DNA from: an uncultured Gemmatimonadales bacterium
Lineage (GTDB): Bacteria > Gemmatimonadota > Gemmatimonadetes > JACCXV01 > JAHWKZ01
DNA: 64,000 bases
Direction of reading: 5' to 3'
NCBI GenBank assembly: GCA_947259315.1
Contig: CAMYLR010000011.1
Span: 72,177 to 136,176 of the forward strand
Shown: piece by piece, positions 17,701-40,263 of the stretch
Position numbering within the stretch: position 1 is the stretch's first letter
How the letters are laid out: every line of letters starts with the position of its first letter
The notes under the pieces: model-generated
Database searches by the model: none
What the model was told of the DNA's origin: nothing
What the model saw: the letters and a program-made list of their open reading frames with translations, nothing else
Program-made: the position numbers and the translations under genes

Positions 17701-19303
17701 GAACGGTCTCCCGGCGGTCGAATTCGACGCTTCGAACGACGGAATGTCGACCAGCGCCAACTCGCCGACGACGACGACGATCATCGCCGTCTACAAGTCA
17801 CGCACGGGGGCTTCGGGCAAGTTGCTCAACGCTGGCTTCTCGTTCTTTATGGGGCCGTACGTCAGCTTCTACCGCAACTACACGTTTGCGTACGTGAACG
17901 GCCCGGCCGTCACGAGCGGTCGGTGGATAACCCAGACACTGCGTCAATCGTCGTCGTCGGCAGAGCTCCACATCGACGGTGCTTTCGTTGGGTCGACGGG
18001 GTCGGTCTCGAACCCGGGGAGTATCCTGCTCGCGCGACAGGGCACGTACGGTGAGCGGTTGGACGGTTCGATCGCCGAGGTGTTGGTCTACAGCCGAACT
18101 CTGACCGACACCGAGCTCAGTGATGTCCACGACTGGCTATCGAACAAGTATGTGGCACCGCCGGGTAATGCGTCGCCGACGGCGGCGTTTAGCTCGAGCT
18201 GCACGGATCTCGACTGCAACTTCACCGACCAGAGCACCGACTCCGACGGCAGCGTGGTGTCGTGGAGCTGGGACTTTGGCGACGGCAACACGTCGACGGC
18301 TCAGAACCCGTCGCACAGCTATGCGGCGGCAGGGACGTATACGGTTTCGCTGACGGTGACCGATAACGAGGGTGCGACCGACGCCGCGTCATCCGATGTG
18401 ACCGTGACGGACCCGGCGGTGAATGTCCCGCCGGCGGCGGCGTTTGGTTCAAGTTGTACGGATCTCGACTGCAACTTTACCGACGAGAGCACCGACTCCG
18501 ACGGCAGCGTGGTGTCGTGGAGCTGGGACTTTGGCGATGGGAACACGTCGACGGCGCAGAATCCGTCGCACAGCTATGCCGCGGCGGGGACGTACACGGT
18601 GTCGCTGACGGTGACCGACGACGACGGTGACTCCGACGCGACCTCGAGTGATGTGACGGTTACTGAGCCGGGCTCATTTGACCCGAGTGACGTGCCAGAT
18701 CTGCTGACGTGGCTCAAGGCCGATGCGATTACCGGTCTCAACGACGGTGATCCGGTAGGGACGTGGCCCGACGCATCGGGTAACGGAAAGGACGCTACTC
18801 AGACGACGTCGTGGAGGCGGCCGATCTACGCAACGAACCAGGTCAACGGCCTGCCCGCGCTGAAGTTCGACGCTTTCAACGACGGCATGGTGACCAGCGC
18901 GAATCCGCCCAAGTCTTCGACGATCATCGCCGTTTACAAGTCGAACGCGGGAGCCTCGGGCAAGACGTTGAACGGTGGGTTCTCGTACTTCATCGGCCCG
19001 TACGTCAGCTTCTACCGCAACTACACCGGTGCATTTGTGACCGGACCGGGGGTGACCTCGGGTCGCTGGTTGATCCACACGATTCGCCAGGGCTCACGCG
19101 CTGAGTTGTTCATCGACGGTGTGGCAAACGGCTCGACGAACCGGACCGCAAATCCGGGCAACATCTTGCTGGCCGGGTCGGGGACCTATGGCCAGAAGCT
19201 AGATGGCTCGATATCCGAGGTGTTGGTGTACAGCCGGACGCTGACCGATACCGAGTTGGCGGACGTCCACGCCTGGCTCCAGGCGCGGTACGCGATCCCG
19301 TAG
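14777..19303 (+). CDS. Secreted lipoprotein subtilase (peptidase S8) followed by PKD and LamG (concanavalin-like) domains in the order PKD-LamG-PKD-PKD-LamG-PKD-PKD-LamG
   Basis: GTG 14777 lies 5 nt after GGAGG. Lipobox LIALIAC. I9-like propeptide, then the S8 catalytic triad: D (AILDTGI), H (HGTHVAG) and S (GTSMASP). PKD domains of the form C.DL.C.FTDQSTDSDG..VSWSWDFGDGNTSTAQNPSH.Y...GTY.VSLTVTD. LamG_3-like domains ending in LDGSIAEVLVY.RTLTDTEL. The track start is 14765. Confidence 0.85.
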   Translation: MRTHPLLVPHALVAGLIALIACSEDSPTAPSDQTVRPPAAVLRASSGDAYVAGRVLVEFKPGANETAIANSQGAAMGRRYLRKIRMLHVTNGQEMRIVQALRRRADVVFAEPDYIRTIDIGCPSCSVPTDALFGQKWDLDNDGTVRSETGGVLANTGQVDADMDWLEAYDHLGPQFSGSARIAILDTGIRATHQDIVGRVAVQFDFVNQDPDAADDQGHGTHVAGIAGARGNNAIGVSGVAYGANIDFAIAKVCRVTVISAECASSDIIDGIDWAVLNGANVINMSFGGDTPSAGEQTALQAARAAGVLPFCAAGNNAGPVIYPAAFPECVAVSATDWGDNLASYSNSGPEVELSAPGGDFENLFGYSQIFSPCFDSDSAYCYKSGTSMASPNAAGLGALIYAVGLTDDDAVLNQMKSTADDLGPAGVDNQFGHGRINAFQAIQNLTPGDPNQSPTAAFTYSCNDLDCGFTDQSTDSDGTIVSWSWTFGDGGTSTLQNPSHTYACSGDYSVTLRVTDDGGRSGIDSQTVSVTASTGPPGGPGDIADLMMWLQADAITGLNDGDPVSSWSDLSGSCNPATQGTASKQPAYRVNQVNGLPAVVFDATDDGMSTTANPGTATTIVAVYASRAGASGKMLNGGFSFFMGPYVSFYRNFTFAYVTGPGVTSGRWVIHTLRQSSSSAEMHFDGALIGSTGSVSNPGSILLAKQGTYGEQLDGSIAEVLVYNRTLTDTELGDVHNFLSTKYTAPPGNASPTAAFSSNCTDLDCTFTDQSTDSDGSVVSWSWDFGDGNTSTAQNPSHSYAAAGTYSVSLTVTDNEGATDATSSDVTVTAPAANVPPTAAFSSSCTDLGCNFTDQSTDSDGSVVSWSWDFGDGNTSTAQNPSHSYAAAGTYSVSLTVTDDDGDSDATSNNVTVTEPGPFDPSDVPDLLMWLKADAITGLSDGDKVSTWPDASGNGKHATQSSNSKKPKYRTNQVNGLPAVEFDASNDGMSTSANSPTTTTIIAVYKSRTGASGKLLNAGFSFFMGPYVSFYRNYTFAYVNGPAVTSGRWITQTLRQSSSSAELHIDGAFVGSTGSVSNPGSILLARQGTYGERLDGSIAEVLVYSRTLTDTELSDVHDWLSNKYVAPPGNASPTAAFSSSCTDLDCNFTDQSTDSDGSVVSWSWDFGDGNTSTAQNPSHSYAAAGTYTVSLTVTDNEGATDAASSDVTVTDPAVNVPPAAAFGSSCTDLDCNFTDESTDSDGSVVSWSWDFGDGNTSTAQNPSHSYAAAGTYTVSLTVTDDDGDSDATSSDVTVTEPGSFDPSDVPDLLTWLKADAITGLNDGDPVGTWPDASGNGKDATQTTSWRRPIYATNQVNGLPALKFDAFNDGMVTSANPPKSSTIIAVYKSNAGASGKTLNGGFSYFIGPYVSFYRNYTGAFVTGPGVTSGRWLIHTIRQGSRAELFIDGVANGSTNRTANPGNILLAGSGTYGQKLDGSISEVLVYSRTLTDTELADVHAWLQARYAIP
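17030..19303 (+). repeat. Intragenic tandem duplication: two ~1.14-kb PKD-PKD-LamG units (~17030-18165 and ~18166-19303). A third partial PKD-LamG unit lies at ~16138-17010.
   Basis: Long stretches are near-identical at the DNA level. An example is ggcagcgt.gt.tcgtggagctgggactttggcgacggcaacacgtcgacggctcagaacccgtcgcacagctacgccgcggcgggcacgta, which occurs at ~17100, ~17360, ~18245 and ~18505. The LamG segments at 17530-18160 and 18670-19303 are collinear. Confidence 0.75.
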
Positions 19304-23994: not shown

Positions 23995-24665
23995 ATGAAG
24001 TGCAGTCGGGTCGCGATTAGCACGATGGTGCTGCTTCTGCTGGGCTTCGGATTGGGACGCGCACAGGGGCCGACGGGAGCCCCGATCGATCTGTCGTACC
24101 CGTTCAATGAGGAGACCGTGTACTGGCCCACCGCGTCGCCGTTTGAGCTGACCGTCGAGGCGGCGGGTCAGACAGAAGCGGGCTATTGGTACGCCGCTAA
24201 CTCTTTTCGCGCCGCTGAGCACGGTGGGACCCACCTCGATGCACCGATCCATTTCGCCGAAGGCAAGCGTACCGCGGCCGAGATCCCGCTCGACGACCTG
24301 ATGGGGCCTGGGGGAGCCGTTGGCCCGATCGATCGAGCTACTTGGGCACAGCGGAGCTCGGTCCAAGTGCGGTGGCTGATCTCCACTTTCCAGGCTTGGG
24401 TCCCGATGCGGCCACATGGTTGGTCGAAGAGCGTCGGGTGCGGGCGGTAGGGATCGATACCGCCTCGATCGACCGCGGCCAGTCGACCGAGTTCCACGCG
24501 CATCGAGTGTTGGCCGAAGCCAATGTCCCGATCTTCGAGAACGTGGCCAACCTCGACCAACTGCCACCGACCGGAGCGTGGGTTGTGGCGTTGCCAATGC
24601 AGATCGAGCGCGGCACCGGCGGTCCCCTGCGCGCCGTGGCGTTCGTACCCGACTCGGGACAGTGA
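23995..24665 (+). pseudogene. Cyclase-family (kynurenine formamidase-like, PF04199) protein disrupted by a frameshift near 24340-24370
   Basis: The N-terminal ORF 23995..24450 has a signal peptide and the HGGTHLDAPIHF motif. The C-terminal ORF 24342..24665 continues the family (...VRAVGIDTASIDRGQSTEFHAHRVL...) in another frame. Together they give ~220 aa, typical of the family. Confidence 0.55.
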
Positions 24666-24666
24666 T

Positions 24667-24915
24667 GTGAGCGATACAATCGAGCGAACGGTGGGCGGCG
24701 TGACGGTACGCATCGATCGCCTCTTGTGCGTCGGTTTTGGTGACTGCATCGACGAAGCACCGCACGCGTTTGCGTTGGACGATGAGGGGATCGCGGAGTT
24801 TGGCGAGGCAGTCAACGGCGTCGACCGGGGGCAACTTATCCGCGCCTGCGAAGCGTGTCCGGTCGATGCCCTGTCGGTGCACGACGCCGACGGCAACCCG
24901 CTGGCGGCAGAGTGA
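24667..24915 (+). CDS. Small [4Fe-4S]/[3Fe-4S] ferredoxin (Fer4_13-like, 82 aa)
   Basis: A GTG start overlaps the cyclase stop. Motifs CVGFGDCIDEAP...ACEACPVDAL are typical of single-cluster actinobacterial/thermophilic ferredoxins. The stop overlaps the Mrp start (GTGA). Confidence 0.6.
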   Translation: MSDTIERTVGGVTVRIDRLLCVGFGDCIDEAPHAFALDDEGIAEFGEAVNGVDRGQLIRACEACPVDALSVHDADGNPLAAE

Positions 24916-25817
24916 CCGAGCGGACGCGCAAGGTACGGACGTACCACGAGGTAGCTGATCCGGACTCCGAGGATATCGTCGGCCAAATCGAGGCTCAGCG
25001 CTCGAAGTTGGTTGGCCGTTTGGCGGACATCGATCGATTGGTGGTCGTGGCCAGCGGCAAGGGCGGGGTGGGAAAGAGCGCGATAACCGCCAATCTTGCG
25101 GCGTTGATAGCCGAACGCGGGCGTCGCGTCGGCGCCATCGATGGGGATCTGCACGGCCCGTCGTTGGCTGCCATGCTCGGTGCCGAGCGTACACCGTTGG
25201 TCGTCTCCGAGCACGGAGTCGAGCCAGCCGTCGGTGCGGCCGGCGTCAAGCTGATGTCGATGGACCTCGTGCTGTCGGATGGTGCGCCGCTCGAGTGGCG
25301 TCAACCCGAGGTGGCTGGATTTGTGTACCAGAGCACCCTCGACACCGGTGCGGTGCGGGAACTGCTGGCCGACGTCGTGTGGGGTGAGCTCGATTTTCTG
25401 TTGATCGATGCACCGCCGGGTACCGACAAACTGGCGCGTTTGCTGGAGCTATTACCGGTGATCGACACACTATTGTTGGTCACGACGCCATCCGAGGCGG
25501 CTCGCCGAGCGGTGGGGCGCACTGTTCGACAAGCGCACGGGACGGGGATTTCGACGATCGGGCTGGTGGCTAACATGACCGCTCACGAGTGCCCCGACTG
25601 CGGTCGGTCGGAACCGATGTTCGAGGCCGACGGCGCCGCCCGGCTGGCGACCGAAACGGGACTCGAGCTGTGGGCCGAGGTGCCGTTCGAGCCCCGCTTC
25701 GCGGTGGCTACCGACGCCGGGCGGCCGCTCGTCCTCGAAGCGCCTGAGTCGCCAGCCGCACGCGAGCTCGGTCGCCTCGCGACCAAGCTCGCGAACGCAA
25801 CGAGCGACACCGCATGA
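24912..25817 (+). CDS. apbC: Mrp/NBP35/ApbC-family Fe-S cluster carrier ATPase
   Basis: Deviant Walker A VVVASGKGGVGKSAITANLA. Conserved CPxC cluster-bridging motif (HECPDCG). No N-terminal DUF59. The GTG start overlaps the ferredoxin stop. Confidence 0.8.
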   Translation: MTERTRKVRTYHEVADPDSEDIVGQIEAQRSKLVGRLADIDRLVVVASGKGGVGKSAITANLAALIAERGRRVGAIDGDLHGPSLAAMLGAERTPLVVSEHGVEPAVGAAGVKLMSMDLVLSDGAPLEWRQPEVAGFVYQSTLDTGAVRELLADVVWGELDFLLIDAPPGTDKLARLLELLPVIDTLLLVTTPSEAARRAVGRTVRQAHGTGISTIGLVANMTAHECPDCGRSEPMFEADGAARLATETGLELWAEVPFEPRFAVATDAGRPLVLEAPESPAARELGRLATKLANATSDTA

Positions 25818-26254
25818 AGTTCCTGTGTATCGACTGCGATGAGGTAATGACGTTCGCCGAACGCGAGCTACCCGGCGACGGCACGTTGGCGGCGGTGTTC
25901 GAGTGTCCTGATTGTGGGCGCGAGATGGCGATGCTCACGAACCCGATGGAGACCAAGCTGGTGAGCGGGCTCGGGATCCAGGTCGGAGGCCGCACCGTCC
26001 CCGATCAGCCGCTGGAGCTGGTGCGATCATCGGTGACCACCGGCGACGAGCAAGCGTTCGCCGATTTGCCATTAACGGCCGGAACGGTGCGCTGGAGTGA
26101 AGCCGCTGCTGAGCGACTCCAAGGCGTCCCGGGATTCGTGCGCGGCATGGTGAAGAAGATCTACGGCGAGTACGCCGTCGAACGGGGGATCGAGGAGATC
26201 ACTCCCGAGATCATGGACCGCGCCCGGCAAGATCTCGGGCTCGAGGGGATGTAG
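25814..26254 (+). CDS. Zn-ribbon protein with a C-terminal PCP_red (BchB/ChlB C-terminal-like) domain
   Basis: N-terminal CxxC...CxxC (CIDCDEVM...CPDCGREM). The C-terminal block WSEAAAERLQGVPGFVRGMVKKIYGEYAVERGIEEITPEIMDRAR closely resembles the BchB C-terminal domain (W-T-x-x-A-x-x-x-L-x-x-IP-x-FVRG-K-V-R). ATGA overlap with mrp. Confidence 0.55.
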   Translation: MKFLCIDCDEVMTFAERELPGDGTLAAVFECPDCGREMAMLTNPMETKLVSGLGIQVGGRTVPDQPLELVRSSVTTGDEQAFADLPLTAGTVRWSEAAAERLQGVPGFVRGMVKKIYGEYAVERGIEEITPEIMDRARQDLGLEGM

Positions 26255-26256
26255 CG

Positions 26257-26643
26257 ATGCTGCGGCGGGCCGAGCACGAGCCACACCGGGCTCACAAGTT
26301 CCGTCAGGCGGCGATCGCCTACCTCCACTACGCGGTGCTCTACGAGCTCGGTGTTTACGCGCTCTACGAGCAGGAGATGTTTCCCGCCAGCCGCGGCTCG
26401 CCGACGGTGTGGCTGGTTTTTGGCGTGGTCATCACCGGTCTCGTCGTATGGGGTCTGTGGTGGTGGCAGAACCGGTGGTTCGCGCGCGTCGTGTGGGTGG
26501 TGATGTCGTTGCGGCTCCCGGCGCTCATGGCGGGCGCCTTTTTGGGGACCGCGACCACCGTTGCTCCGGGTTTCTACCTCGCCGGCGGTATCGTCGTAAT
26601 CGCTGCGATGTGGATGATCGCTCGGGCAGCCTGGGACGTGTGA
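26257..26643 (+). CDS. Small membrane protein (3-4 TM)
   Basis: Hydrophobic segments with a W-rich loop (WGLWWWQNRWF). Lies immediately downstream of the PCP_red protein. Confidence 0.4.
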   Translation: MLRRAEHEPHRAHKFRQAAIAYLHYAVLYELGVYALYEQEMFPASRGSPTVWLVFGVVITGLVVWGLWWWQNRWFARVVWVVMSLRLPALMAGAFLGTATTVAPGFYLAGGIVVIAAMWMIARAAWDV

Positions 26644-26658
26644 GCCCGGGCCGCCGGA

Positions 26659-26687
26659 TTGACACTACCCCCAGCCGTCAGTATATA
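26659..26687 (+). promoter_or_regulatory. Sigma70-like promoter: TTGACA, 17-nt spacer, TATATA
   Basis: ttGACActacccccagccgtcagTATATAagg lies ~55 nt upstream of the usp-PCP_red start, in the only sizeable intergenic gap of the 24.6-39.7 kb co-directional cluster. Confidence 0.45.
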
Positions 26688-26740
26688 AGGCGCCAACATC
26701 GCCGAAGGGTTTACGCCCCGCCGCTCTAGTCCCGGACGGC

Positions 26741-28768
26741 ATGTACCACGAGATACTGGTTCCAGTAGACAATTCAGAGCACTCTGATTGGGCGGTCGAT
26801 CGTGCCATCGAGATCACCGGTCAATCCGGCGGCCGGATCACCGGTAACCACGTCTACGCCGCTCGCCTTCACGATGTTCGCTTCCGACAGCTCGAGACGG
26901 GACTTCCGGCTCAATTCCAGACACCCGAAGAGATCAAGCGACAGCGCAAGGTTCACGACAAGCTGATCGAGAAGGGCCTGCAGCTGATCAGCGATAGCTT
27001 TCTCGATCAGGTCGAGAAGCGGTGCCACGAGGCGGGCGTCGACCTCACGCGGCAGCTGCTCGAGGGGATCCACTACGAGGAGCTGATCCGCGAGGCCAAT
27101 CAAGGGGTGGGACGTCTGCCTTCGCTTATCGGGTTCGACCCCAACATCGCCGACAAGTACGACGGCGGTGACGCCGTTCGTTCCGACGTGCGCCTGGGCG
27201 CCGACGGTCGGATCGAGGCCGAGGAGGAGTCACTCGAGGAGAAGCTTGCGGGCACCTCGGAGCGGGCCTACGACCTGGTGGCGATCGGCGCCCACGGGCT
27301 CGGCCGGCAGCAGTTCAGCCAGCTCGGTGGGGTCGTCGCACGGGCGATCCGCGGCATAGAAAAGGACATCCTGATCGTCCGTGACGAGCGACCGATTCGC
27401 GACGGCAAGTACATGGTGTGCGTCGACGGCTCAGCCTACAGCTACAAGGCGATGCGTCACGCGCTCGAGCTGGCACAGATGTTCGGCGGCAAGTTGTTCG
27501 TTTGCAGCGCGTTCGACGTTGAGTACCACCACGTCGTCTTCCACAACATCAAGGATGTCTTGTCCGTACAGGCATCGAAGGTGTTCAAGTTCGAGGAGCA
27601 GGAAGAGCTCCACAACAACATCATCGACAAGGGGTTGCTCAAGCTCTGCCAAGCGAACATCAAGCGCGCCCAGGTCATGGCCGAGGAGTACCCGGACGTA
27701 GAGGTCGAAACCCAGATCCTGATCGGCAAGCCATTCCAGGTCGTGCTTCAGTGGGCCGAAGAGATCGAGCCGTCGCTGTTGATCTTCGCCCGCCACGGCA
27801 GCCATCGGATCGAGGGCACCGAATTGGGTTCGCAGGCCGAGAACTTGGCCCGCCTGGCACCTACCAACGTGCTGCTGATCGGCACCACCGAAGTTCATCC
27901 GGAAGAGATTCCGTGGATCGAAGAAGATGGGGAAACCGGTCTCGAATGGGCTCCCGAAGCGGAAGTCCGGATCCTTCGGGTACCGCCGTTCGCGCTCGGC
28001 ATCGCCCGCAAGGCGGTCGAGGAGTACGTGATCGAACGGTACGCTTCCAACGGCAACGGCTCGGGCGCGTTGCCGATAGTGACCAACGCGCGGCTCGATG
28101 AAGCGATCCAGAAACTGCTTCCCACGCACATGCAGCTCATCATGGGGATCGGCACCGCCGAAGAGCTGGCGCTAGCCGAGGTCAAGGCGGAAGAAGCGAT
28201 GAAGCGCACGGTGGTGGAAGGGCACGACGACGTTCCCGTGCCCGAGACGCGGATCGTGGAGGCCAAGTGCCCCTACACCGGCCACGTCGAACAACGACCG
28301 TGGACAGCTAGCGATCCGGTCGTTTGGACGCACGAGGCGCGGCAACGTCTCGAGCTCGTTCCGCTCATCGCGCGCCCATTGGCCCGCAACACCGTTGAGC
28401 GCTTTGCCCGCGATCACGGATGGTGGCGCATCACGACGCCGGTCATGGACGAGAACAAGCAGGCGATGATCGAGGCCGACGAGTTCGATCTCGATACGAT
28501 GCTCGTCATGTTCAAGGAGCTGCAGACGAAACAGATCAAAGCCGCGGCCGAAGGAGTCGACGGACTGACACCTGAGATGCGCAAGTTCATCGACGAGGCT
28601 AAGGAGGCCGGGGTCACGCGCTGTCCGATACGGGATATCGAGGCCGCTGCGGACAAGTGCCCGGTGGACTTCAAGACCGCTACCCCGGCCGAGGCCAAAG
28701 CGGCGATCGAGGCGGTCATGAAGGAGCAGAAGAGCGACGCCAACGGTGACGACCGGGACGAAGCTTGA
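26741..28768 (+). CDS. Tandem universal stress protein (UspA) domains fused to two PCP_red-like domains and a C-terminal Cys pair
   Basis: Usp starts (MYHEILVPVDNSEHSDWAVDRA, and YMVCVDGSAYSYKAMRHALELA with ...LLIFARHGSH...GS.AENLARLAPTNVLLIGT). Then two BchB-C-term-like blocks (WAPEAEVRILRVPPFALGIARKAVEEYVIERYAS and WTHEARQRLELVPLIARPLARNTVERFARDHGW). C-terminus ...TRCPIRDIEAAADKCPVDF. Confidence 0.6.
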   Translation: MYHEILVPVDNSEHSDWAVDRAIEITGQSGGRITGNHVYAARLHDVRFRQLETGLPAQFQTPEEIKRQRKVHDKLIEKGLQLISDSFLDQVEKRCHEAGVDLTRQLLEGIHYEELIREANQGVGRLPSLIGFDPNIADKYDGGDAVRSDVRLGADGRIEAEEESLEEKLAGTSERAYDLVAIGAHGLGRQQFSQLGGVVARAIRGIEKDILIVRDERPIRDGKYMVCVDGSAYSYKAMRHALELAQMFGGKLFVCSAFDVEYHHVVFHNIKDVLSVQASKVFKFEEQEELHNNIIDKGLLKLCQANIKRAQVMAEEYPDVEVETQILIGKPFQVVLQWAEEIEPSLLIFARHGSHRIEGTELGSQAENLARLAPTNVLLIGTTEVHPEEIPWIEEDGETGLEWAPEAEVRILRVPPFALGIARKAVEEYVIERYASNGNGSGALPIVTNARLDEAIQKLLPTHMQLIMGIGTAEELALAEVKAEEAMKRTVVEGHDDVPVPETRIVEAKCPYTGHVEQRPWTASDPVVWTHEARQRLELVPLIARPLARNTVERFARDHGWWRITTPVMDENKQAMIEADEFDLDTMLVMFKELQTKQIKAAAEGVDGLTPEMRKFIDEAKEAGVTRCPIRDIEAAADKCPVDFKTATPAEAKAAIEAVMKEQKSDANGDDRDEA

Positions 28769-30045
28769 TCTCGGCAGTACCGCATATCGTCGCTTGGAAC
28801 CTCACCCGGCGCTGCAATCTCGCCTGCGCCCATTGTTACATCGCGGCTGGATCGTGGCACGCGGCTGGAGAGGAGCTGCCGACCAGTGACTGCCACCGGA
28901 TCGTGGACGAGATCCTGGCGGTCAACCCGTCGCCGATGTTGATCCTGTCCGGCGGTGAGCCGCTGCTGAGGGATGACTTGGAATCGATCGCCGCTCGCGC
29001 TTCAGCCGGCGGTGCAACGGTCGTAGTCGGTACCAACGGCACTCGATTGACAGACGCGCGAATCGCGTCGCTCATGGCGGCCGGGGTGCAGGGTGTCGCG
29101 GTGAGCGTCGACTCCCTCGACCCTGTGTATCACGATCGTTTTCGACACGGCGCGGGCGCGCTCTCCGACACGTTGGCCGCGGTAGAGCGATTGAGCGACA
29201 ACCGCTTGGATCTCGTTCTGCAGACCACCGTGACCCGCGGGAATCAAGCCGAAATAGGACGCCTCGCGTCATTGGCCGCTGATTCCGGGGCGGTCGCTTT
29301 CAACGTCTACTTCGTTGTAGCCACTGGAAGAGCCGGCACCATGAAGGGGATGTCGACCGCGGAAAATGATGATGTCTTGACAGAGCTCGCCGCGCTCGAG
29401 CGCGAGTACCGCGGTCGGATGCTCGTTCGGTCGAAGTGCCAACCCCAGATCATGCGTCACGTCTACGATTCGGATCCCGAATCACCGCTGTTGAACTACG
29501 CCACTCGTTGCCCGTGCGGAGTGCAGTACTGTCGGATCACGCCCGACGGGAAAGTGACGCCGTGTCCCTACATGGAGGTCGTTGCCGGCGACTTGAGTGC
29601 GCAATCGTTCGGTGAGATCTGGAGCGACTCGCCGGTGTTTGGGGATCTGCGCAGAGGAGAGCTGGGTGGGAAGTGTGGTCGTTGCGGGTATCGTGAGATC
29701 TGCGGTGGATGCCGCGCGCGGGCCTTCGCCGAGACGGGCGACTATCTGGGACCGGACGGGTCGTGCGGCTATGAGCCTGATGGTGTCGAGTCGCCGGTGA
29801 CGCGGACGCGTGAGATCACCTACGGCACGCCAGCCCGGGCCGAGCTCGAGTGGTCACCCGAGGCGGCGGAACGAGTCGCTCGGATCCCGAGCTTCGTCCG
29901 CGGTGTCGTGACTCATCGCGTCGAGACCTTTGCCGCTGACCACGGTCACGATCGCGTTACCGCCGCGCTGCTCGACGAGGTGCGATCCCAGATGCCGATC
30001 GACTTCTCGAAACGCCGACCCTTCTTCAGCCGGAAGCGCGAGTGA
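28765..30045 (+). CDS. Radical SAM / SPASM-domain enzyme (NirJ/AhbD-like) with a C-terminal PCP_red-like extension
   Basis: CX3CX2C at the N-terminus (WNLTRRCNLACAHCY), typical of NirJ/AhbC/AhbD-type enzymes. GGEPLL. Cys-rich SPASM region (CPCGVQYC...CPYM...CGRCGYREICGGCRARAF...GSC). C-terminal WSPEAAERVARIPSFVRGVVTHRVETFAADHG. ATGA overlap with the upstream gene. Confidence 0.8.
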   Translation: MISAVPHIVAWNLTRRCNLACAHCYIAAGSWHAAGEELPTSDCHRIVDEILAVNPSPMLILSGGEPLLRDDLESIAARASAGGATVVVGTNGTRLTDARIASLMAAGVQGVAVSVDSLDPVYHDRFRHGAGALSDTLAAVERLSDNRLDLVLQTTVTRGNQAEIGRLASLAADSGAVAFNVYFVVATGRAGTMKGMSTAENDDVLTELAALEREYRGRMLVRSKCQPQIMRHVYDSDPESPLLNYATRCPCGVQYCRITPDGKVTPCPYMEVVAGDLSAQSFGEIWSDSPVFGDLRRGELGGKCGRCGYREICGGCRARAFAETGDYLGPDGSCGYEPDGVESPVTRTREITYGTPARAELEWSPEAAERVARIPSFVRGVVTHRVETFAADHGHDRVTAALLDEVRSQMPIDFSKRRPFFSRKRE

Positions 30046-30046
30046 G

Positions 30047-31870
30047 ATGAGTAGTGTCGCGACGGTGTTTCGAATCGCCGCGGTGGGGAATCTGCCACGG
30101 CTACGTGGAACGCGTTCGTTGGTTCCTAGCTTTGGCGCGGTCGCGCTGGGGCTGCTTATGGCGCAATCGGGGTTCGCGCAGGAAGCCGGTATCGCGACCC
30201 GCGAGTACGGCGACTTCCCTTACATCGGCAGCCGAGTAGCGGTGTGGATAGCGGCGCAGGTCCACCTCATGTTCGCGGCGTTTGTTCTTGGCGTCCCGAT
30301 GTTCGCGATGGTCGCCGAGGCGATCGGCATCTTTGGTGGCGACAAGCGCTACGACCGACTGGCCAAGGAGTTTACCCGACTTCTGCTGATCGCTTACAGC
30401 GCGACCGCCATCTGGGGTGCGGTTCTGGTTTTCTTCCTGACCACGTTGTACCCCCGGTTCTGGGCTCACCTGTCGGAGATCTTCGAAGTCTCGATGTGGA
30501 TCTACGTCGGGCTCTTCTTCCTCGAGTCGTTCACTCTGTACCTCTACTACTACGGTTGGGATCGTTGGAAGGCAGGGACCGCGAAGTACGCGCACTGGGG
30601 GTTGGCGATCCTGCTCAACATCTGGGGCACGGCGGTCATGTTTATCGCCGACAGTTGGTTGAGCTACATGATGAGCCCGCCGGAAGTGATCACGGCCGAT
30701 CCATCGCCGGGGGTCGTTCAGTTGTGGAGCGCGATCAACAACGCCACGTGGATGCCGATCAACATCCATCGCATCATCGCCAACGTCGTGTTCGGGGGCT
30801 CGGTCGTCGGCGCTTACGCCGCGTACCGGTTCCTGGCCGCCAAGTCCGATGAAGAGCGCGCGCACTACGACTGGATGGGGTACGTCGGCAACTTCATCGC
30901 GATCGGGGCGCTCATCATCCTGCCGTTCGCCGGTTACTACCTGGGACGCGAGATCTACGAGTTCAACCAGCAGATGGGGATCACGATGATGGGTGGTTTC
31001 ATGAGCTGGTTGTGGATCATTCAGGCCTTCTTGATCGGCGTCTTGTTCTTGACCGGCAACTACTACTTGTGGGTCGGCATGACTCGCATCCCCGGTGCCG
31101 AGCGGTTTCTTCCGTACACCAAGTGGATGCTCGTAGTGTTGGTCATCGGCGTTATCGTGTGGGCCACGCCACACACGATGATCGCCAATCGTGCCGAGCT
31201 CGAGGCGATGGGCGGCTCTCACCATCCGTTCCTGGGTGTGTTGGGCGTCATGAGCGCCAAGAACACCGCGGTCAACCTGATGATTCTGACGACGTTCCTT
31301 TCGTTCCTGATGTACCGACGAGCCAACAAGCGCCCGGTGGTCGGGTGGGCCAAAACAGGGACAATCGTGCAGGCTTCGCTCTTCGCGTTATCCGCCGCGG
31401 TCGTGCTCTTCTACGGCGTCTATGGCTACTTCGTGACAGCGATCGTGCGGATCGGCTTCAGCGTCTACCAGGTGCTGGCGGTGCTGGGGACGATCATCGC
31501 CGTCATGGTGCTCGATGTGTTGATGCTGCGCGGCTCCGAATCGCGAGGCGCGATTCAGTGGGGCAACATGCCGGCGCGATCGCAATACGCACTGTTTGTC
31601 TTGGTGGTCACGTTTACCTGGCTCATGGGATTGATGGGCTTCGCGCGCAGCGGCATTCGCCAACACTGGCACGTTTGGGAGGTCATGCGCGACACCAGTC
31701 AGTGGGCGGCCACCCCAGCGTTGGGACCCGCGGCTCAGGTGATCAGCGTGTGCGTTCTGATCTTCCTCGTGCTGATCGCATTCATCTTCTGGCTTGGCGG
31801 GTTGGTGGAGAAACCGCAGCTAGTACCGGAACAACCGGCACCTGGAGCTTCCGGAACCGTGACGAGCTAA
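30047..31870 (+). CDS. Cytochrome bd family subunit-I (CydA)-like membrane protein, with no CydB partner
   Basis: ATG immediately after the rSAM stop. The CydA signature region is conserved (...AQVHLMFAAFVLGVPMF..., MWIYVGLFFLESFTLYLYYYGWDRW versus E. coli [24 protein letters not shown]). About 12-14 TM helices. No cydB-like gene follows. Confidence 0.75.
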   Translation: MSSVATVFRIAAVGNLPRLRGTRSLVPSFGAVALGLLMAQSGFAQEAGIATREYGDFPYIGSRVAVWIAAQVHLMFAAFVLGVPMFAMVAEAIGIFGGDKRYDRLAKEFTRLLLIAYSATAIWGAVLVFFLTTLYPRFWAHLSEIFEVSMWIYVGLFFLESFTLYLYYYGWDRWKAGTAKYAHWGLAILLNIWGTAVMFIADSWLSYMMSPPEVITADPSPGVVQLWSAINNATWMPINIHRIIANVVFGGSVVGAYAAYRFLAAKSDEERAHYDWMGYVGNFIAIGALIILPFAGYYLGREIYEFNQQMGITMMGGFMSWLWIIQAFLIGVLFLTGNYYLWVGMTRIPGAERFLPYTKWMLVVLVIGVIVWATPHTMIANRAELEAMGGSHHPFLGVLGVMSAKNTAVNLMILTTFLSFLMYRRANKRPVVGWAKTGTIVQASLFALSAAVVLFYGVYGYFVTAIVRIGFSVYQVLAVLGTIIAVMVLDVLMLRGSESRGAIQWGNMPARSQYALFVLVVTFTWLMGLMGFARSGIRQHWHVWEVMRDTSQWAATPALGPAAQVISVCVLIFLVLIAFIFWLGGLVEKPQLVPEQPAPGASGTVTS

Positions 31871-31874: not shown

Positions 31875-32669
31875 ATGTGGGCGACGAACCTCAAGATTCT
31901 GGGCATCGTGCTCGGCACACTCGCCCTGTACACGTTGATCGCCAACGGCATCCCCCAGGTCGAGTCCGAGGTACCGCAGGAGTTGTCGTTCACAGGCGAA
32001 GTGAGCGCGGCCGAGTTGGTGGCGGCGGGTGAAGAGTTGTACGCCGGGGCTGGCGGCTGCACCGCCTGCCACGGGCTCGGCACGCGGGCGCCCAACTTGT
32101 TGAGCGACGCCGGCGGTCAAGGTGCGATCGGCGCGCGCTGCGGCCAGCGCGTAGAGGGTGAATCGTGCAAGGAGTATCTGTATCGATCGATGATCGAGCC
32201 CAATGTGTTTGTCGTTGAGGGGTTTCAGCCGATCATGCCGGACATGCGACGGACGCTGTCGGAGGTTCAGATCTGGGCCATGATCGCCTATCTGCAAAGC
32301 GTGGGGGGCGAGGTGACGGTCACCGGCGACGACATCGCGGCTGCGCAACCTGCCGGTGAAGACGAGGCGTCGGATTCAGGTGCGGGAGCGATGATCGTAG
32401 CGACCACTGATCCGCTCGAGTTGCTGCGTGAGATGCAGTGCCTGGCTTGTCACTTGCTAGGCGACGAGGGGGCTCAAGTGGGTCCGCCTCTCGATGACCT
32501 CGGAAGCCGCCTGACGACTGATCAGATTCGTGAGTCGATCCTCGACCCCAACGCGGAGTTGGCGGCGGGCTACGAACAGTTCGGCGGTATGATGCCGGCC
32601 AACTTCGGTCAAAGGCTGACCGCCGAGCAGCTCGAGGTGATCGTGTCGTATCTCGGATCCCAAAAGTGA
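31875..32669 (+). CDS. Membrane-anchored dihaem c-type cytochrome
   Basis: N-terminal TM anchor. Two CxxCH sites (CTACHGL, CLACHLL), each with a downstream Met-containing segment. Confidence 0.7.
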   Translation: MWATNLKILGIVLGTLALYTLIANGIPQVESEVPQELSFTGEVSAAELVAAGEELYAGAGGCTACHGLGTRAPNLLSDAGGQGAIGARCGQRVEGESCKEYLYRSMIEPNVFVVEGFQPIMPDMRRTLSEVQIWAMIAYLQSVGGEVTVTGDDIAAAQPAGEDEASDSGAGAMIVATTDPLELLREMQCLACHLLGDEGAQVGPPLDDLGSRLTTDQIRESILDPNAELAAGYEQFGGMMPANFGQRLTAEQLEVIVSYLGSQK

Positions 32670-32676: not shown

Positions 32677-33480
32677 TTGAGCATCAATCGGTATCTGCGC
32701 CATCCGTTTTGGCAGGCGATTCTGGTCCTAGTGATCGCGTACGTGTTGATCGAGTACGGCATCCCGTATTTGCCTCCGCTAATCGGGATCAGCAGCGCGC
32801 CGGTACCACAGTCGGTCGTGTTGCAGTACATGCTGACCGTGTTGGCGGGAGTACTGATCTGGGTCAGCGACAATGAGGAGCGTTGGGCGCGGTTTCGCGA
32901 GCCGATCCGCGCGACGCTCGTCGATCGCGACAAGCGAGTGTTACGGATTGCGCTACTCGTCATCGTCCCGCTGCTGACCGGATGGCTCACTTTCCGCGCC
33001 GTGCGTCAGACCGTGGCCGCGCCCCCCAGCTTGCGGTCGATCCATCCGGCACCACCGTCGTCGATCACGTTTCGTGGCCAAACGATGCAACTCGCTGGGC
33101 TGGAGAACCCGCTGCGCGAAGGCGACTTGATGGCTGAGGCCTATCGTGTCGGGAAGCGCGTTTACTACCAGAACTGTCTGCCGTGTCATGGCGACGCGCT
33201 GAGCGGAGACGGGCACTACGCGCACGGATTCACGCCCGCACCGCTGGCGTTTACCGGTTCGAGCACGATCGCTCAGCTGACCGAGAGTTTTGTGTTCTGG
33301 CGGATCGCCAAGGGCGGCCCGGGACTTCCACGCGAGGGCACGCCGTGGAACTCGGCCATGCCGGCGTGGGAGGACATCCTGAGCGAGGACGAGATCTGGT
33401 CGGTGATCGTGTTTCTGTACGAGCAGGCAGGCGTCTCGCCCCGGACTTGGGAAGAAGCCGAGGGGTCTGGTGAGCACTAA
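32677..33480 (+). CDS. Membrane-anchored monohaem c-type cytochrome
   Basis: Three N-terminal TM helices, then CLPCHGDALSGDGHYA and ...AMPAWEDILSEDEIWSVIVFLYEQ, a class-I cytochrome c signature. Confidence 0.65.
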   Translation: MSINRYLRHPFWQAILVLVIAYVLIEYGIPYLPPLIGISSAPVPQSVVLQYMLTVLAGVLIWVSDNEERWARFREPIRATLVDRDKRVLRIALLVIVPLLTGWLTFRAVRQTVAAPPSLRSIHPAPPSSITFRGQTMQLAGLENPLREGDLMAEAYRVGKRVYYQNCLPCHGDALSGDGHYAHGFTPAPLAFTGSSTIAQLTESFVFWRIAKGGPGLPREGTPWNSAMPAWEDILSEDEIWSVIVFLYEQAGVSPRTWEEAEGSGEH

Positions 33481-35017
33481 GGGGTTTGCGATAGGGGTCG
33501 CGTTGAGCGCATTTGTCGCGGCCGCGCCGGCGGCCGCTCAGGAAACGCCTGTCGGAAAGGCGATATACGATAAATGGTGCGCCGAATGCCACGGCGAGGA
33601 CGGTGCAGGCGACGGCTCGGCAGCAGCCTACATGTTGCCGCAGCCGAGGGACTTCACCACCGGGCTGTACCAGATTCGCACCACGCCCAGCGGCGAGCTT
33701 CCCACCGATGATGACATCCTCAGAATGATCGACGAAGGCATGCCCGGGTCGGCGATGCCAGGCTGGAAAGAGTACCTGAGCGACACCGAGCGCAACGACC
33801 TGGTTCAGTACCTGAAGACCTTTTCACCGTTCTTCGAAGACGAAGCCCCGTCGCCGGTCGAGTACGGTGGACCGCCTGGAGTGAACGAGGAGGGCCTCGC
33901 CGAGGGGAAAGAGTTCTACGACAAGATCGAGTGCTGGAAGTGCCATGGACAGGCTGGCCGCGGAGACGGTCCGTCGGCGCCGACTCTCGAGGACGATTGG
34001 GAGCTTCCGATCCGAGCCACAGACTTGACCGAGGGTTGGAACTTCAACGGCGGCCACACGACGGAAGCGATCTTCGCCCGGCTGATGACGGGGCTCAACG
34101 GAGCGCCGATGCCGTCGTTCGCAGACCTGATCGACGCTGAGTTCATGACCGAGGAACAGCTGTGGCGCGTTGCGCAGTACGTGAAGAGCCTCTCTCCCGA
34201 GACGCCTGAGGTTCGAGAGGTCGTTCGGGCGGCTCTGGTCGAGACGCTTCCCACGAGTGTCGACGATCCGGCGTGGGATGCAATCGAGAGGTTTTACATC
34301 CCTCTCGTCGGGCAAATAATCGTCGAGCCGAGGTGGTTCGCGCCGACGGTCGACGGCGTGTGGGCGCAGGCCGCTCATGACGCCCAGCGCGTCGCGTTGC
34401 GCCTAACGTGGAACGATCCATCGGAGAGCCCGAATCCGGAATGGGAGGAGTGGCGGCAGCGCGTGGTCAGCGTCATGGAGCCAAGCGTCGAGGCCACTGA
34501 CGAGTTGCTATCCGATGCGCTTACGGTTCAGTTCCCAACCACGATCCCCGAGGGCATGAAGCGTCCCTATTTCTTGATGGGTGCTCAGGACGAGCCGGTG
34601 TACTTGTTGAGTTGGAACAGCGGTGGCGGCGCAACCGAAGCGCTCGGTCGCGGGATGAACGCGATCGAGCCGATCGGGGGTGCCTCGACGTTGACCACTG
34701 AGTCGACGTTCGATGATGGACAATGGCGGCTCTATTTGAGTCGCGATCTGATCACTGAGAGTGCAGATCGGCTGGCTATCGAGACTGGCCGTCCGATTCC
34801 CATGGCGATCTTCGCCTGGGACGGTTCGAACGGCGAGTCCGGTACGCAGGGCGCGATAAGCACGTGGTACTTCTTGTATCTCGATCAGCCGACGGAGAAC
34901 ATTACGTACGCGTTTCCGGTAGTGGCGGTGCTTTTGACAGCCGTGCTGGGCTTGGTCATCATTGCGCGCGCTCAGCGCGCAACCGGCGGCGGTGGCCCTG
35001 AACCCGGGTCTGATTAA
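33470..35017 (+). CDS. Dihaem c-type cytochrome (515 aa) with a C-terminal TM anchor
   Basis: Signal peptide. CAECHGEDGAGDG...MPGW and CWKCHGQAGRGDG...MP, resembling CcoP/c4-like tandem haem domains. The ~300-aa C-terminal domain is of unknown type, and a TM helix (FPVVAVLLTAVLGLVIIA) closes the protein. A GTG start overlaps the previous gene. Confidence 0.7.
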   Translation: MSTKGFAIGVALSAFVAAAPAAAQETPVGKAIYDKWCAECHGEDGAGDGSAAAYMLPQPRDFTTGLYQIRTTPSGELPTDDDILRMIDEGMPGSAMPGWKEYLSDTERNDLVQYLKTFSPFFEDEAPSPVEYGGPPGVNEEGLAEGKEFYDKIECWKCHGQAGRGDGPSAPTLEDDWELPIRATDLTEGWNFNGGHTTEAIFARLMTGLNGAPMPSFADLIDAEFMTEEQLWRVAQYVKSLSPETPEVREVVRAALVETLPTSVDDPAWDAIERFYIPLVGQIIVEPRWFAPTVDGVWAQAAHDAQRVALRLTWNDPSESPNPEWEEWRQRVVSVMEPSVEATDELLSDALTVQFPTTIPEGMKRPYFLMGAQDEPVYLLSWNSGGGATEALGRGMNAIEPIGGASTLTTESTFDDGQWRLYLSRDLITESADRLAIETGRPIPMAIFAWDGSNGESGTQGAISTWYFLYLDQPTENITYAFPVVAVLLTAVLGLVIIARAQRATGGGGPEPGSD

Positions 35018-35085
35018 CGTCTAGCCGACATTTAAGGGGTCGATAGCATCGTTGCATTGATCAACCACACATGAAGGAGAGGGAT

Positions 35086-35913
35086 ATGAACTTTTCACTG
35101 AGGCAGATCCTCGCCTTGGTCGTGGTGTCGGGGATCTCGATCGCCACCGCTTGTGGTGGTGGTGGCGAGCCAACCGATGACGGGGCCGACGGCGACGCTC
35201 CGGCAGCGGCCGGTCCGGTCGTAAGCCCGGACAGTGCGGCCATGATCACCGGGACGGTTTCGTTCGAAGGCACGGCGCCGGCGGCCGAGCCGATCGATAT
35301 GAGCGAGGAGCCGACTTGCGCCGAGAAGCACCCCGATGGCGCCATGCGCCAACTGGTCATGGTTGCGGGCGGTGGGTTGGCCAACGTCTATGTCTACGTG
35401 AAGTCGGGGTTGGGGGACCGGAGTTTCCCGACTCCGTCGGCGCCGGTGACGCTGGACCAGGACGGCTGCGAATACATGCCGCACGTCTTGGCGATACAGG
35501 TAGGGCAATCGCTGGAGATCAAGAACAGCGATGGGATCCTCCACAACATCAACACCCAGCCCACCGTGAACCGCGGTTTCAACATCAGCCAGCCGGTCGT
35601 GATGGAAACGTCGCGGGAGTTTTCGCAACCGGAAGTCATGATCCCGGTCAAGTGTGATGTCCACGGTTGGATGGAAGCGTTCATCGGTGTCCAGGCTCAC
35701 CCGTACGCGGGTGTCAGTGGCGCCGACGGATCGTTCTCGTTGGCGGATCTGCCTCCCGGTGAGTACGAAATCGAAGCCTGGCATGAGTTGTACGGGACGC
35801 AGTCCCAAACGGTCACCGTAGGGGTCAAAGAGACCGCCGAAGTGAGCTTCACGTTCAGCTCCGATATGGCCGGGAACCACGTGCCTCTAGGCGAACCGCT
35901 CGTTCTCAGATGA
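35086..35913 (+). CDS. Lipoprotein with an amicyanin-like type-1 copper (cupredoxin) domain and a C-terminal CarboxypepD_reg-like beta-sandwich
   Basis: ATG 35086 lies 6 nt after AAGGAG. Lipobox IATAC and a Gly/Asp-rich linker. Cupredoxin fold (VLAIQVGQSLEIKNSDGILHNI), with the His, then the C-X2-H-X2-M loop (KCDVHGWM), ~37 residues later, as in amicyanin. C-terminal GADGSFSLADLPPGEYEIEAWHE. The stop overlaps the coxB start (ATGA). Confidence 0.65.
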   Translation: MNFSLRQILALVVVSGISIATACGGGGEPTDDGADGDAPAAAGPVVSPDSAAMITGTVSFEGTAPAAEPIDMSEEPTCAEKHPDGAMRQLVMVAGGGLANVYVYVKSGLGDRSFPTPSAPVTLDQDGCEYMPHVLAIQVGQSLEIKNSDGILHNINTQPTVNRGFNISQPVVMETSREFSQPEVMIPVKCDVHGWMEAFIGVQAHPYAGVSGADGSFSLADLPPGEYEIEAWHELYGTQSQTVTVGVKETAEVSFTFSSDMAGNHVPLGEPLVLR

Positions 35914-39732: not shown

Positions 39733-40263
39733 TTACTCGTCCCAAATCCGGTTGAAGTGCGTCAGCAACCGGGGGTGGCGGTACCATAGCCAGGCCGCCA
39801 TCCCGGCGGCAGCCAGCAGGTTCGCGACCGCGACGCCCCAAAACGCGATGCTTCCGAGCAATGGTTGGCCGATCGCCACCATGTAGACGTGGAAAGCGAC
39901 CTCGAAGAAGATAAAGAAGAAAACCAGGGCGATCCCGAGCGGTGGGATGCGCTCGATCTCGGTCACCAGAAACGACGCTACGACGCCGACGCCGATGAAC
40001 GCCGCGTGGTGCACGATCGTGTAAGCCGCGACCATACCCGGATCGATGACCGTGTGACCGGCAGCCGCTTCACCTCCCTTGAAGAGCACAGTTCCGAGGA
40101 GCGACGGGGTGTAGAGCGCCTGATACTGGACTACGTCGAGGAACAGGAACCAAGCGGCAACGATCCCGGCACCGATCATCCCGGTCACAAAGCCTTCGAT
40201 CAGGACGTTTGGGGCGGAAGCGGGTGGGACGATGGGTCGTGTTGCTGAAGGGGCGTCGGTCAT
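39733..40263 (-). CDS. Four/five-TM membrane protein at the end of the reverse-strand cox operon (possibly DUF420/CtaM-like)
   Basis: ATG at 40263 (MTDAPSATRP...) preceded by GGGAGGT. The track ORF runs on to 40602 but overlaps coxD. His-containing TM helices. The functional assignment is speculative. Confidence 0.45.
   Translation of the reverse strand: MTDAPSATRPIVPPASAPNVLIEGFVTGMIGAGIVAAWFLFLDVVQYQALYTPSLLGTVLFKGGEAAAGHTVIDPGMVAAYTIVHHAAFIGVGVVASFLVTEIERIPPLGIALVFFFIFFEVAFHVYMVAIGQPLLGSIAFWGVAVANLLAAAGMAAWLWYRHPRLLTHFNRIWDE

Follow-up and report, generated by a model that had tools for sequence, protein, structure and literature searches.

The PCP_red domain (PF08369, a 45-position Pfam profile with a gathering score of 32.5 bits) is known as the C-terminal domain of BchB, a subunit of the light-independent protochlorophyllide oxidoreductase (DPOR). 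In the cryo-electron microscopy states of DPOR, the L-protein touches BchB only, through unspecified residues, and the C-terminal domain is not named as a contact (PMC12022308); the substrate-capping helix that acts in trans (residues 398-420) precedes PCP_red in the chain (PMC12022308). We report here on a 64,000-nucleotide (nt) stretch of DNA from an uncultured Gemmatimonadales bacterium (contig CAMYLR010000011.1; ‘the window’, meaning the whole stretch analysed), in which PCP_red is carried by three otherwise unrelated proteins of one locus: a tandem universal stress protein (USP) that we call U, a radical S-adenosylmethionine (SAM) enzyme that we call R, and a Zn-ribbon protein, Z. U and R are paired in operons across phyla, in the neighbourhood of oxidases and porphyrin enzymes, and may together serve oxidase-linked haem processing.

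Other parts of the locus have described relatives too. Mrp/NBP35 proteins, to which a fourth gene product (M) belongs by domain, are known as cluster carriers, not reductases, and in AhbD-type enzymes, which R resembles, the one radical-SAM cluster is joined by up to two auxiliary ones. AhbD is an O2-independent coproheme decarboxylase that replaces ChdC in some coproporphyrin-pathway organisms (PMC13564367). Directly behind R lies a gene for a relative of cytochrome bd subunit I. Among such bd-like oxidases, the OR-N family has been defined by sequence and operon context, and in the accessible part of its description only a CydAA' enzyme is biochemically characterised (bioRxiv 10.1101/2021.01.16.426971). 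That part of the preprint contains the term ‘radical SAM’ zero times and makes no mention of radical SAM, Usp or PCP_red neighbours.

A U-R gene pair and its shared PCP_red domain

Six co-directional plus-strand genes were found where a preliminary description, made from the letters of this DNA, had placed them: F (24667-24915), M (24912-25817), Z (25814-26254), T (26257-26643), U (26741-28768) and R (28765-30045). Open reading frames (ORFs) and Pfam matches bore out the domain identities proposed for F, M, Z, U and R, as well as the claim that PCP_red is common to three otherwise unrelated proteins. U is of the tandem Usp type (amino acids (aa) 1-~385) and carries two PCP_red copies, at ~aa 403-447 (nt 27947-28081) and ~529-573 (nt 28325-28459), or ~402-438 and ~528-570 by a family hidden Markov model (HMM), followed by a ~100-aa C-terminal tail. 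R, an AhbD/NirJ-like radical SAM-SPASM enzyme, has a single C-terminal copy (aa 363-407, nt 29851-29985), and Z joins a Zn ribbon (CxxC...CxxC) to one copy at aa 94-138 (nt 26093-26227). All three proteins exceed the gathering score (Z 53.5, U 56.3 over two stretches, R 46.1 bits), the best stretch in each spanning profile positions 1-45. Running the family HMM over all six frames of the window returned these four copies (one in Z, two in U, one in R) and no others. The statement that three proteins end in the motif had to be amended for U: its twofold copy was real, and both copies are internal, with ~100 residues after them.

The shared motif is not a generic helical segment. Z aligned with the C-termini of solved BchB/ChlB chains (2xdq_B, a ChlB, E 4.9e-6; 3aek_B, E 7e-4) and with the stand-alone domains 2kru_A (E 2.5e-3) and 2l09_A (E 3.4e-3), solved by nuclear magnetic resonance, while U matched the solved BchB/ChlB C-termini weakly (E 0.16-0.35). 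Like these, the copies form a ~45-residue helical domain with the signature W-x2-E-A...(V/I)P-x-F-(V/A)-R. Unlike in BchB/ChlB, they sit on non-nitrogenase-like proteins—Usp, radical SAM and Zn ribbon—in one to five or six copies, and, in further contrast to BchB/ChlB of DPOR, there is no known phototroph among the loci examined.

U is widespread, with at least 587 confirmed loci in species-representative genomes. Hosts include Nitrospirales, Nitrospinia, SAR324, Gallionellales, Nitrosomonadales, Parvularculaceae, Nannocystaceae, Fibrobacteria, Binatia, Dormibacterota, Chloroflexota, Actinomycetes and sulfur-oxidising Gammaproteobacteria (Thiodiazotropha, Sedimenticola and a tubeworm endosymbiont); a profile search added Methylomirabilota/Rokubacteria and Terriglobales. 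We sampled 86 loci (identified below as L001 and so forth) over 10 kb on either side of U with simple six-frame ORF calling, so that absences refer to the neighbourhood and not to the genome. R was present in 71 of the 86, and U was followed by R on the same strand in 70. Gemmatimonadota, Nitrospirales, Proteobacteria, SAR324 and Methylomirabilota are among the groups represented. The gap between the two genes had a median of 12.5 nt and was at most 150 nt in 64 of the 70 pairs; R lay directly downstream of U in 67.

The genes around the pair differed by clade. In Gemmatimonadota (three loci and the window), F, M, Z and T in varying order precede U and R, which are followed by the CydA-like gene, two genes for c-type cytochromes, a third encoding a cytochrome c with an EB_dh-like domain, a copper-like lipoprotein and a haem-copper oxidase (COX). 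In 18 proteobacterial loci, U-R is followed by a gene of the HemY/CgoX type, usually with genes for a PBS-lyase-like HEAT protein and the copper lipoprotein upstream and the CydA-like and cytochrome c genes divergent. A CopD/DUF4149-like membrane protein gene follows U-R in 42 Nitrospirales loci; in Nitrospirales no CydA-like gene was present within 10 kb. The three Methylomirabilota loci read COX2-COX1-CtaA-CtaB-COX3-COX3-COX4-...-U-...-R-T-...-M, with the copper lipoprotein before U in L084 and L087, and two 7-8-Mb genomes (L085, L086) carry U-M-Z-T, a small ORF and an HmuY gene, Z being detected in L085 only. Finally, ten loci from Dormibacterota, Chloroflexota, Actinomycetes and Binatia have U, an ABC ATPase, a bd-like gene, cytochrome b and a second bd-like gene, without R; given these ten, U is not just an accessory of R.

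Within 10 kb of U in the 86 loci, the carriers of PCP_red were U, R, Z and one 308-aa protein, no others, and the copy numbers in U, R and Z change together by clade: five in U and three in R in Proteobacteria, three and one in Nitrospirales (neither clade having Z), and two, one and one in U, R and Z of Gemmatimonadota. That U, R, M, Z and T recur jointly or as subsets in unrelated phyla upholds the earlier proposal that the gene set is a functional unit. As to its novelty, we likewise found no account of the module in the literature searched on PCP_red, bd-like oxidases, AhbD and USPs; the arrangement is, however, not rare. The strongest clues had been overlooked, namely that U is constantly paired with R, that a HemY-like gene comes behind R in Proteobacteria, and that oxidases and CtaA/CtaB lie around the pair.

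Predicted activities of U and R

The Usp part of U matched Pfam Usp (E 1.4e-32), again in two stretches. The AlphaFold2 model has a mean predicted local distance difference test score of 72, with most of the Usp cores, outside a clade-specific insert, at ~85-94, and a Foldseek search with it retrieved ATP-bound tandem USPs: 3ab8 (TTHA0350; template-modelling (TM) score 0.83, E 1.4e-12), Rv2623 and UspE (3cis, 4r2j). Over aa 1-~385 the fold is like that of these proteins (E 1e-12 to 1e-13, target TM score 0.7-0.83), and both ATP-binding glycine motifs are also kept. In an alignment of 63 diverse sequences, G183-x2-G186-x9-G196 and G353-x9-G363-S364 were invariant; compared with the pattern G-x2-G-x9-G-(S/T), U of the window has G-G at the last position in domain 1, and in domain 2 the first G is Ala. 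On this footing of motifs and model, U is a predicted ATP-binding tandem USP.

Several features set it apart from other tandem USPs. U has family-specific helical inserts with invariant His, Asp and Arg, the six invariant histidines being H37, H44, H72, H263, H291 and H355; it has no invariant cysteine and hence no Fe-S site in its core; and it bears PCP_red repeats, with or without a rubredoxin-like knuckle. The Gemmatimonadota proteins additionally possess a specific insert of ~55 aa. In the window this insert (GVGRLPSLIGFDPNIADKYDGG...) lies in the first Usp domain (U aa 122-176, nt 27104-27268); it is missing in all other phyla and modelled with low confidence.

Homologues of U are numerous and poorly named. 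Identity was 70-96% in the best 120 of more than 2,000 relatives (90% clustering), which came from Gemmatimonadota/Longimicrobiales bins, and clustering at 50% left 244 clusters with E < 1e-30. More distant relatives (32-46% identity) retain the tandem Usp core; their PCP_red copies number one to six and are often joined by a rubredoxin-like knuckle. Databases label U merely ‘universal stress protein’, and no NCBIfam model covers it beyond the PCP_red tail. The orthologue from bacterium HR33 (P0068, GCA_002923375.1, L001:10001-11998) was deposited as ‘Light-independent protochlorophyllide reductase subunit B’. This is a mis-annotation driven by the PCP_red tail, and one that could pass for evidence of phototrophy.

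Might U be a plain hypoxia or energy-state regulator of neighbouring respiratory operons, PCP_red being shared through domain shuffling with U, R and Z physically uncoupled? Among tandem USPs, Rv2623 and TeaD are regulators that bind nucleotides, some phyla have U without R, and in Nitrospira marina USPs encoded beside induced operons rise at low O2 (PMC8115632). The supplements of the low-O2 proteome of that species showed only USPs of 288-293 aa, and a U orthologue was not located in them. We consider such a role very improbable, as distant phyla preserve both the order of U and R and the tight spacing between them, PCP_red is confined nearby to U, R and Z with copies that co-vary by clade (U5/R3, U3/R1, U2/R1+Z1), and 70-96% identity of a 675-aa protein across an order suggests many constrained contacts.

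R combines Radical_SAM (PF04055, E 3.3e-23) and SPASM (PF13186, E 5.9e-9) domains with PCP_red, and its CX3CX2C motif reads CNLACAHC (aa 17-24). Its best family matches were NirJ2 (TIGR04055, 269 bits) and AhbD (TIGR04545, 264 bits), both models aligning end to end over aa 8-338; PqqE (112 bits) and the mycofactocin maturase (119 bits) scored far lower. Like AhbD/NirJ, R possesses the CX3CX2C motif and a cysteine-rich SPASM region. In contrast to those enzymes, it carries one to three C-terminal PCP_red copies and was always partnered with U, in oxidase clusters. Scores of R orthologues against AhbD/NirJ2 were 309/315 bits in Thiodiazotropha and 311/320 in Nitrospira. With the curated equivalog cut-off at 500 bits for both models, this range of 264-320 bits, well under the cut-off, marks R as a separate subfamily; by sequence it is a sister subfamily of tetrapyrrole side-chain radical SAM enzymes and no certified AhbD.

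The window gives no sign of an Ahb or haem d1 pathway around R, in line with what had been supposed before. Among its annotated ORFs, of which a few were left unscanned, neither the siroheme route (AhbA/B, AhbC) nor haem d1 synthesis (NirE, NirDLGH, NirF, NirN, NirS) was represented; what the window does hold is a coproporphyrin-type operon with ChdC.

A different substrate is conceivable, in that R could be a protein-modifying SPASM maturase acting on an oxidase or cytochrome subunit, for example by introducing a cross-link, and no tetrapyrrole enzyme at all. Most SPASM enzymes modify peptides, R lies inside operons of membrane redox proteins, and the nearest sequence matches in the Protein Data Bank, its closest solved relatives, were PqqE (6c8v_A, E 7.8e-22) and SkfB, with no AhbD or NirJ structure among them. 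In the family scores, however, the tetrapyrrole clade is ahead of peptide maturases by ~150 bits, 18 loci have a HemY/CgoX gene behind R, and no conserved small precursor-peptide gene was noted beside R, though no systematic search was made. We give the maturase explanation very little credence.

Oxidases, haem enzymes and further genes around the pair

The gene behind R (30047-31870, plus strand) encodes a 607-aa membrane protein like subunit I of cytochrome bd (PF01654, 75.6 bits), starting at ATG 30047, one base past the R stop, and not at 29930. Only its first ~150 residues, roughly the first four helices, were alignable to a solved CydA (5doq_A, E 4.3e-12, aa 57-212), and it has no CxxCH (haem c) motif. 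With the OR-N family, as far as the accessible part of its description goes, the protein shares the N-terminal four-helix core, the lack of a haem c motif and cytochrome c donor genes alongside. We assign it provisionally to the OR-N type; it is a likely client or partner of the module. Orthologues near U scored 540-1000 bits in Gemmatimonadota, Proteobacteria, SAR324 and Nannocystaceae, the fibrobacterial one being a contig-end fragment (206 bits).

Downstream on the plus strand, Pfam and motif matches identified a dihaem cytochrome c (31875-32669, two CxxCH), a monohaem membrane-anchored cytochrome c (32677-33480, one CxxCH) and a dihaem cytochrome c with an EB_dh-like haem b domain (33470-35017, two CxxCH). 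A DMSO_red_II_gam match (86 bits) falls among these three, which are syntenic with the CydA-like gene across phyla. They are followed by a lipoprotein with a CarboxypepD_reg domain (35071-35913, lipobox IATAC) and a type-1-copper-like LHN...C-D-V-H-G-W-M motif. Pfam calls no cupredoxin in this protein; its C-D-[AV]-H-x2-3-M was kept in 21 of 21 homologues, which occur in 20 loci (e.g. L007:8934-9755), often immediately upstream of U. A haem-copper oxidase completes the series (COX2 35910-36668, COX1 36665-38470, COX3 38467-39096), in the same order in L001-L003.

A set made up of the CydA-like gene, the three cytochromes c and the copper lipoprotein, in some cases joined by COX genes, is found with U in Gemmatimonadota, Proteobacteria, SAR324, Nannocystaceae and Fibrobacteria. 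In Dormibacterota and Chloroflexota, U is followed by two bd-like genes and cytochrome b, and in Methylomirabilota U-R-T-M comes straight after an oxidase operon that includes CtaA/CtaB. On its minus strand, the window has a second haem-copper oxidase (40669-44206), made up of a COX2-cytochrome c fusion (43121-44206), COX1 (41238-43427, 729 aa) and COX3 (40669-41241), with a 289-aa ORF without Pfam match adjoining it (39733-40602).

Some 16 kb downstream of R, a plus-strand haem operon (46119-54003) comprises, by Pfam, hemA, hemC, hemD, hemB, a chdC-like gene, hemL, hemE and ferrochelatase. Its ChdC/HemQ-like gene (50007-50801; Chlor_dismutase PF06778, E 5.6e-52) indicates a coproporphyrin-type route, with a coproheme decarboxylase of the O2/H2O2 type already on hand. 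No HemY/CgoX-type gene was seen in the operon, and a 336-aa ORF after ferrochelatase (54087-55097) was rejected as the missing coproporphyrinogen oxidase, having no Pfam match and low-complexity PAAEEE repeats.

Elsewhere, tetrapyrrole genes join the pair itself. In the 18 proteobacterial loci with a HemY/CgoX-type gene (L006-L008, L016, L019, L020, L022, L024-L028, L030, L039, L059, L061, L063 and L079; e.g. L007:14199-15635), the enzyme after R, a flavoprotein of the protoporphyrinogen/coproporphyrinogen oxidase family, matched proto_IX_ox (TIGR00562) at 252.6 bits, against a cut-off of 97.85. Such a gene is unexpected there, since Proteobacteria normally use the protoporphyrin route and other protoporphyrinogen oxidases. 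CtaA and CtaB stand in the same gene string as the module in L084 and L088, and a gene of the HmuY family, whose members bind haem, closes the U-M-Z-T string in L085 (13174-13839) and L086 (13243-13920), two loci with neither R nor an oxidase within 9 kb. Large PBS-lyase-like (CpcE/NblB-like) HEAT proteins are encoded beside the module in 12 loci of Proteobacteria and SAR324 (e.g. L005:12367-14640, L007:6506-8983).

Further observations concern Nitrospirales. The membrane protein encoded after U-R in the 42 loci has 169 aa (L075:13659-14168); as a HemJ candidate it scored 25.4 bits to DUF4149, just over the cut-off, and weakly to CopD, and its homologue in L023 scored 17.9 bits to UPF0093/HemJ. 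In Nitrospira sp. NFB02, U-R is preceded (L075:6693-9563) by MpqE, a methyl-plastoquinone methyltransferase (410 bits, over its cut-off), and by an slr0320-like B12-type radical SAM protein (445 bits, under the 775-bit cut-off).

These neighbours bear on a bolder possibility, namely that R, with the help of U, produces not ordinary haem b but a modified haem that is specific to the bd-like (OR-N) oxidase, which would amount to a new cofactor pathway. R forms a distinct subfamily, as far from AhbD as from NirJ2 and under both cut-offs in three phyla; ordinary haem b is already covered by ChdC; only 1 nt lies between R and the CydA-like gene of the window; and an extra HemY-like gene follows R in Proteobacteria, normally users of the protoporphyrin route. 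OR-N enzymes, moreover, are described from sequence and operon context, with only CydAA' biochemically characterised in the accessible part of that work (bioRxiv 10.1101/2021.01.16.426971). Such a pathway nevertheless seems unlikely to us, as the Nitrospirales U-R pairs are not beside bd-like genes and those of Methylomirabilota come after a haem-copper oxidase operon with CtaA and CtaB.

Of the remaining genes, F encodes a single-cluster ferredoxin of 82 aa (Pfam Fer4_15, E 2.8e-9; Fer4_13, E 2.5e-7) and adjoins the module in the Gemmatimonadota loci L001-L003 only. T, a small membrane protein of 128 aa with about three predicted transmembrane segments, KFRQAAxxYL at its N-terminus and RAAWD(V/L) at its C-terminus, has no Pfam match; relatives stand beside R, M or Z in L001, L003, L084 (Rokubacteria, E 2e-8) and L023 and, weakly, in L085/L086. 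Z is, by full-length conservation across phyla, a family in its own right, with 3738 homologues carrying the NCBI name ‘PCP reductase family protein’; Z of the window and that of an unrelated 8-Mb genome are similar over their full length (E 7e-32). One relative, P0121, is identical to Z, and Gemmatimonadota metagenome bins encode proteins with 92-100% identity to those of the window. The idea that Z is a split-off rubredoxin-PCP_red piece of longer U proteins was discarded: P0403 matched via PCP_red alone, and L085 has a full-length Z orthologue beside a rubredoxin-containing U.

M, whose ORF opens at 24855 and whose likely start is the GTG at 24912 overlapping the F stop, is a P-loop ATPase of the Mrp/NBP35 type (PF10609, E 4.9e-62, 210 bits). 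Like the Mrp/ApbC/NBP35 carriers, it has the PF10609 domain, a deviant Walker A motif (GKGGVGKS) and a CxxC (C-P-D-C). It differs from them in lying within a PCP_red module instead of being a lone housekeeping gene, and in falling below the equivalog cut-offs for MrpORP (200 bits, cut-off 450) and ApbC (142 bits, cut-off 348). By domain and motifs it is a typical Mrp, under those cut-offs. M adjoins U, R or Z in Gemmatimonadota, L023, L084 and L085-L088.

The preliminary description had named M and the CydA-like protein as candidate partners on which PCP_red might dock. The gene distribution does not favour the first and does not imply the second: Mrp is missing within 10 kb of most U-R loci, and in Nitrospirales the CydA-like gene is missing too. 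In a more specific form of the idea, drawn by analogy, PCP_red would be the docking site for a NifH/BchL-like ATPase dimer, here Mrp, giving an ATP-driven electron or Fe-S line from ferredoxin via Mrp to a PCP_red enzyme that mimics the line from ferredoxin via BchL to BchNB. M does belong to the P-loop class of BchL/NifH, with weak matches to BchX, BchL, NifH and CfbC and a CxxC that could bridge a cluster; nine loci, spread over at least four lineages, have it beside a PCP_red protein; and the L-protein of DPOR contacts BchB only (PMC12022308). We find this improbable, given more than 70 U-R loci without Mrp within 10 kb, the cluster-carrier role generally ascribed to Mrp/NBP35 proteins, and a DPOR account in which contacts of the C-terminal domain are not stated (PMC12022308).

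Within the locus, M/Z and U/R overlap by 4 nt each, Z and T are 2 nt apart, and a gap of 97 nt separates T from U. A ‘consensus promoter’ had been placed in this gap (26659-26687, plus strand) and taken to split the locus into F-M-Z-T and U-R-oxidase units. The -35 element is indeed perfect (TTGACA, 26659-26664); the -10 element is imperfect, with 4-5 of 6 positions matching, as TATATA after 17 nt (4/6) or TATAAG after 19 nt, and a rule-based promoter scan of 24300-30300 reported none. The element is promoter-like and putative. The two-unit split itself is plausible in view of the 97-nt gap, the three unrelated genes inserted exactly at the T-U gap in L003 (Gemmatimonadota), the first-unit order T-M-Z-F in bacterium HR33 (L001; T there from a six-frame ORF scan only) and a TTGACA-17nt-CATACT pair upstream of U in HR33.

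A GC-rich hairpin with a T-run (26520-26538, plus strand) that falls within the coding part of T, ~105 nt short of the stop codon, was rejected as a terminator on account of this position and because such sites are no commoner than in shuffled sequence. There was no sign of recent transfer, the GC content of the locus (0.63-0.66) equalling that of the rest of the window. Upstream on the plus strand, a putative cyclase (kynurenine-formamidase-like, HGGTHLDAPIH) is split into two overlapping frames (23995-24450 and 24342-24665), an apparent frameshift reflecting a pseudogene or an assembly error, and a secreted subtilase of 1512 aa that carries five PKD domains along with a laminin-G-like one (14765-19303) lies downstream of a hydantoinase A/B pair (11099-14697).

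A possible role in haem processing

We tentatively read the module, with slightly less than even confidence, as one of oxidase-linked haem processing, in which R would act on an iron tetrapyrrole, U would be its ATP-binding partner and PCP_red would serve as a shared adaptor. For the substrate of R, the adaptor role of PCP_red and the roles of M, F, Z and T, we infer the following course. R would use radicals derived from SAM to alter the side chains of an iron tetrapyrrole, in the simplest case decarboxylating coproheme to haem b independently of O2. Its product would go to the neighbouring bd-like oxidase, cytochromes and haem-copper oxidase. U would bind nucleotide, its PCP_red repeats holding or gating R and binding Z. 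In Gemmatimonadota, M might load the [4Fe-4S] clusters of R, F could supply or remove electrons, and T may anchor the set at the membrane, near the oxidase.

Several observations weigh against this proposal. R misses the AhbD/NirJ2 equivalog cut-off in three phyla, so that its substrate could differ. With ChdC present, a second coproheme decarboxylase would be superfluous except where O2 or H2O2 is limiting, and the proteobacterial R is paired with a HemY-type enzyme, of an O2-dependent kind, a poor fit to a purely anaerobic rationale. In the ten loci of Dormibacterota, Chloroflexota, Actinomycetes and Binatia, U stands beside bd-like oxidases without R, and around the Nitrospirales U-R pairs the 10-kb neighbourhood was free of oxidase genes. 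What PCP_red does in DPOR is not defined in the DPOR literature searched, and gene context by itself does not distinguish between a dedicated maturation system and co-regulation.

A stronger version would make U-R, with M, Z, T and F in some phyla, a dedicated maturation machine that makes or inserts a chemically distinct haem for OR-N and partner haem-copper oxidases, PCP_red being a portable adaptor that possibly recruits a NifH-like ATPase as BchB may; we regard this version as doubtful.

Each component is of a known kind. Not described in the literature searched are the gene combination, the Usp-PCP_red and AhbD-like-PCP_red architectures, for which no curated family models exist, and the link to bd-like/haem-copper oxidase clusters. 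Current labels of U hide a large family and can falsely suggest phototrophy. PCP_red outside DPOR offers this orphan domain a second, non-photosynthetic context, which could clarify its role in protochlorophyllide reductase.

The bd-like oxidases are candidate terminal oxidases in nitrite oxidisers such as Nitrospira, and here they also occur in Nitrospinia, Ca. Thiodiazotropha, tubeworm-endosymbiont genomes, soil Methylomirabilota and Gemmatimonadota. We found no assembly factors described for them in the literature searched. As a conserved pair that travels with these oxidases and has a predicted chemistry like that on haem side chains, U and R may offer an experimental route into their cofactor supply.

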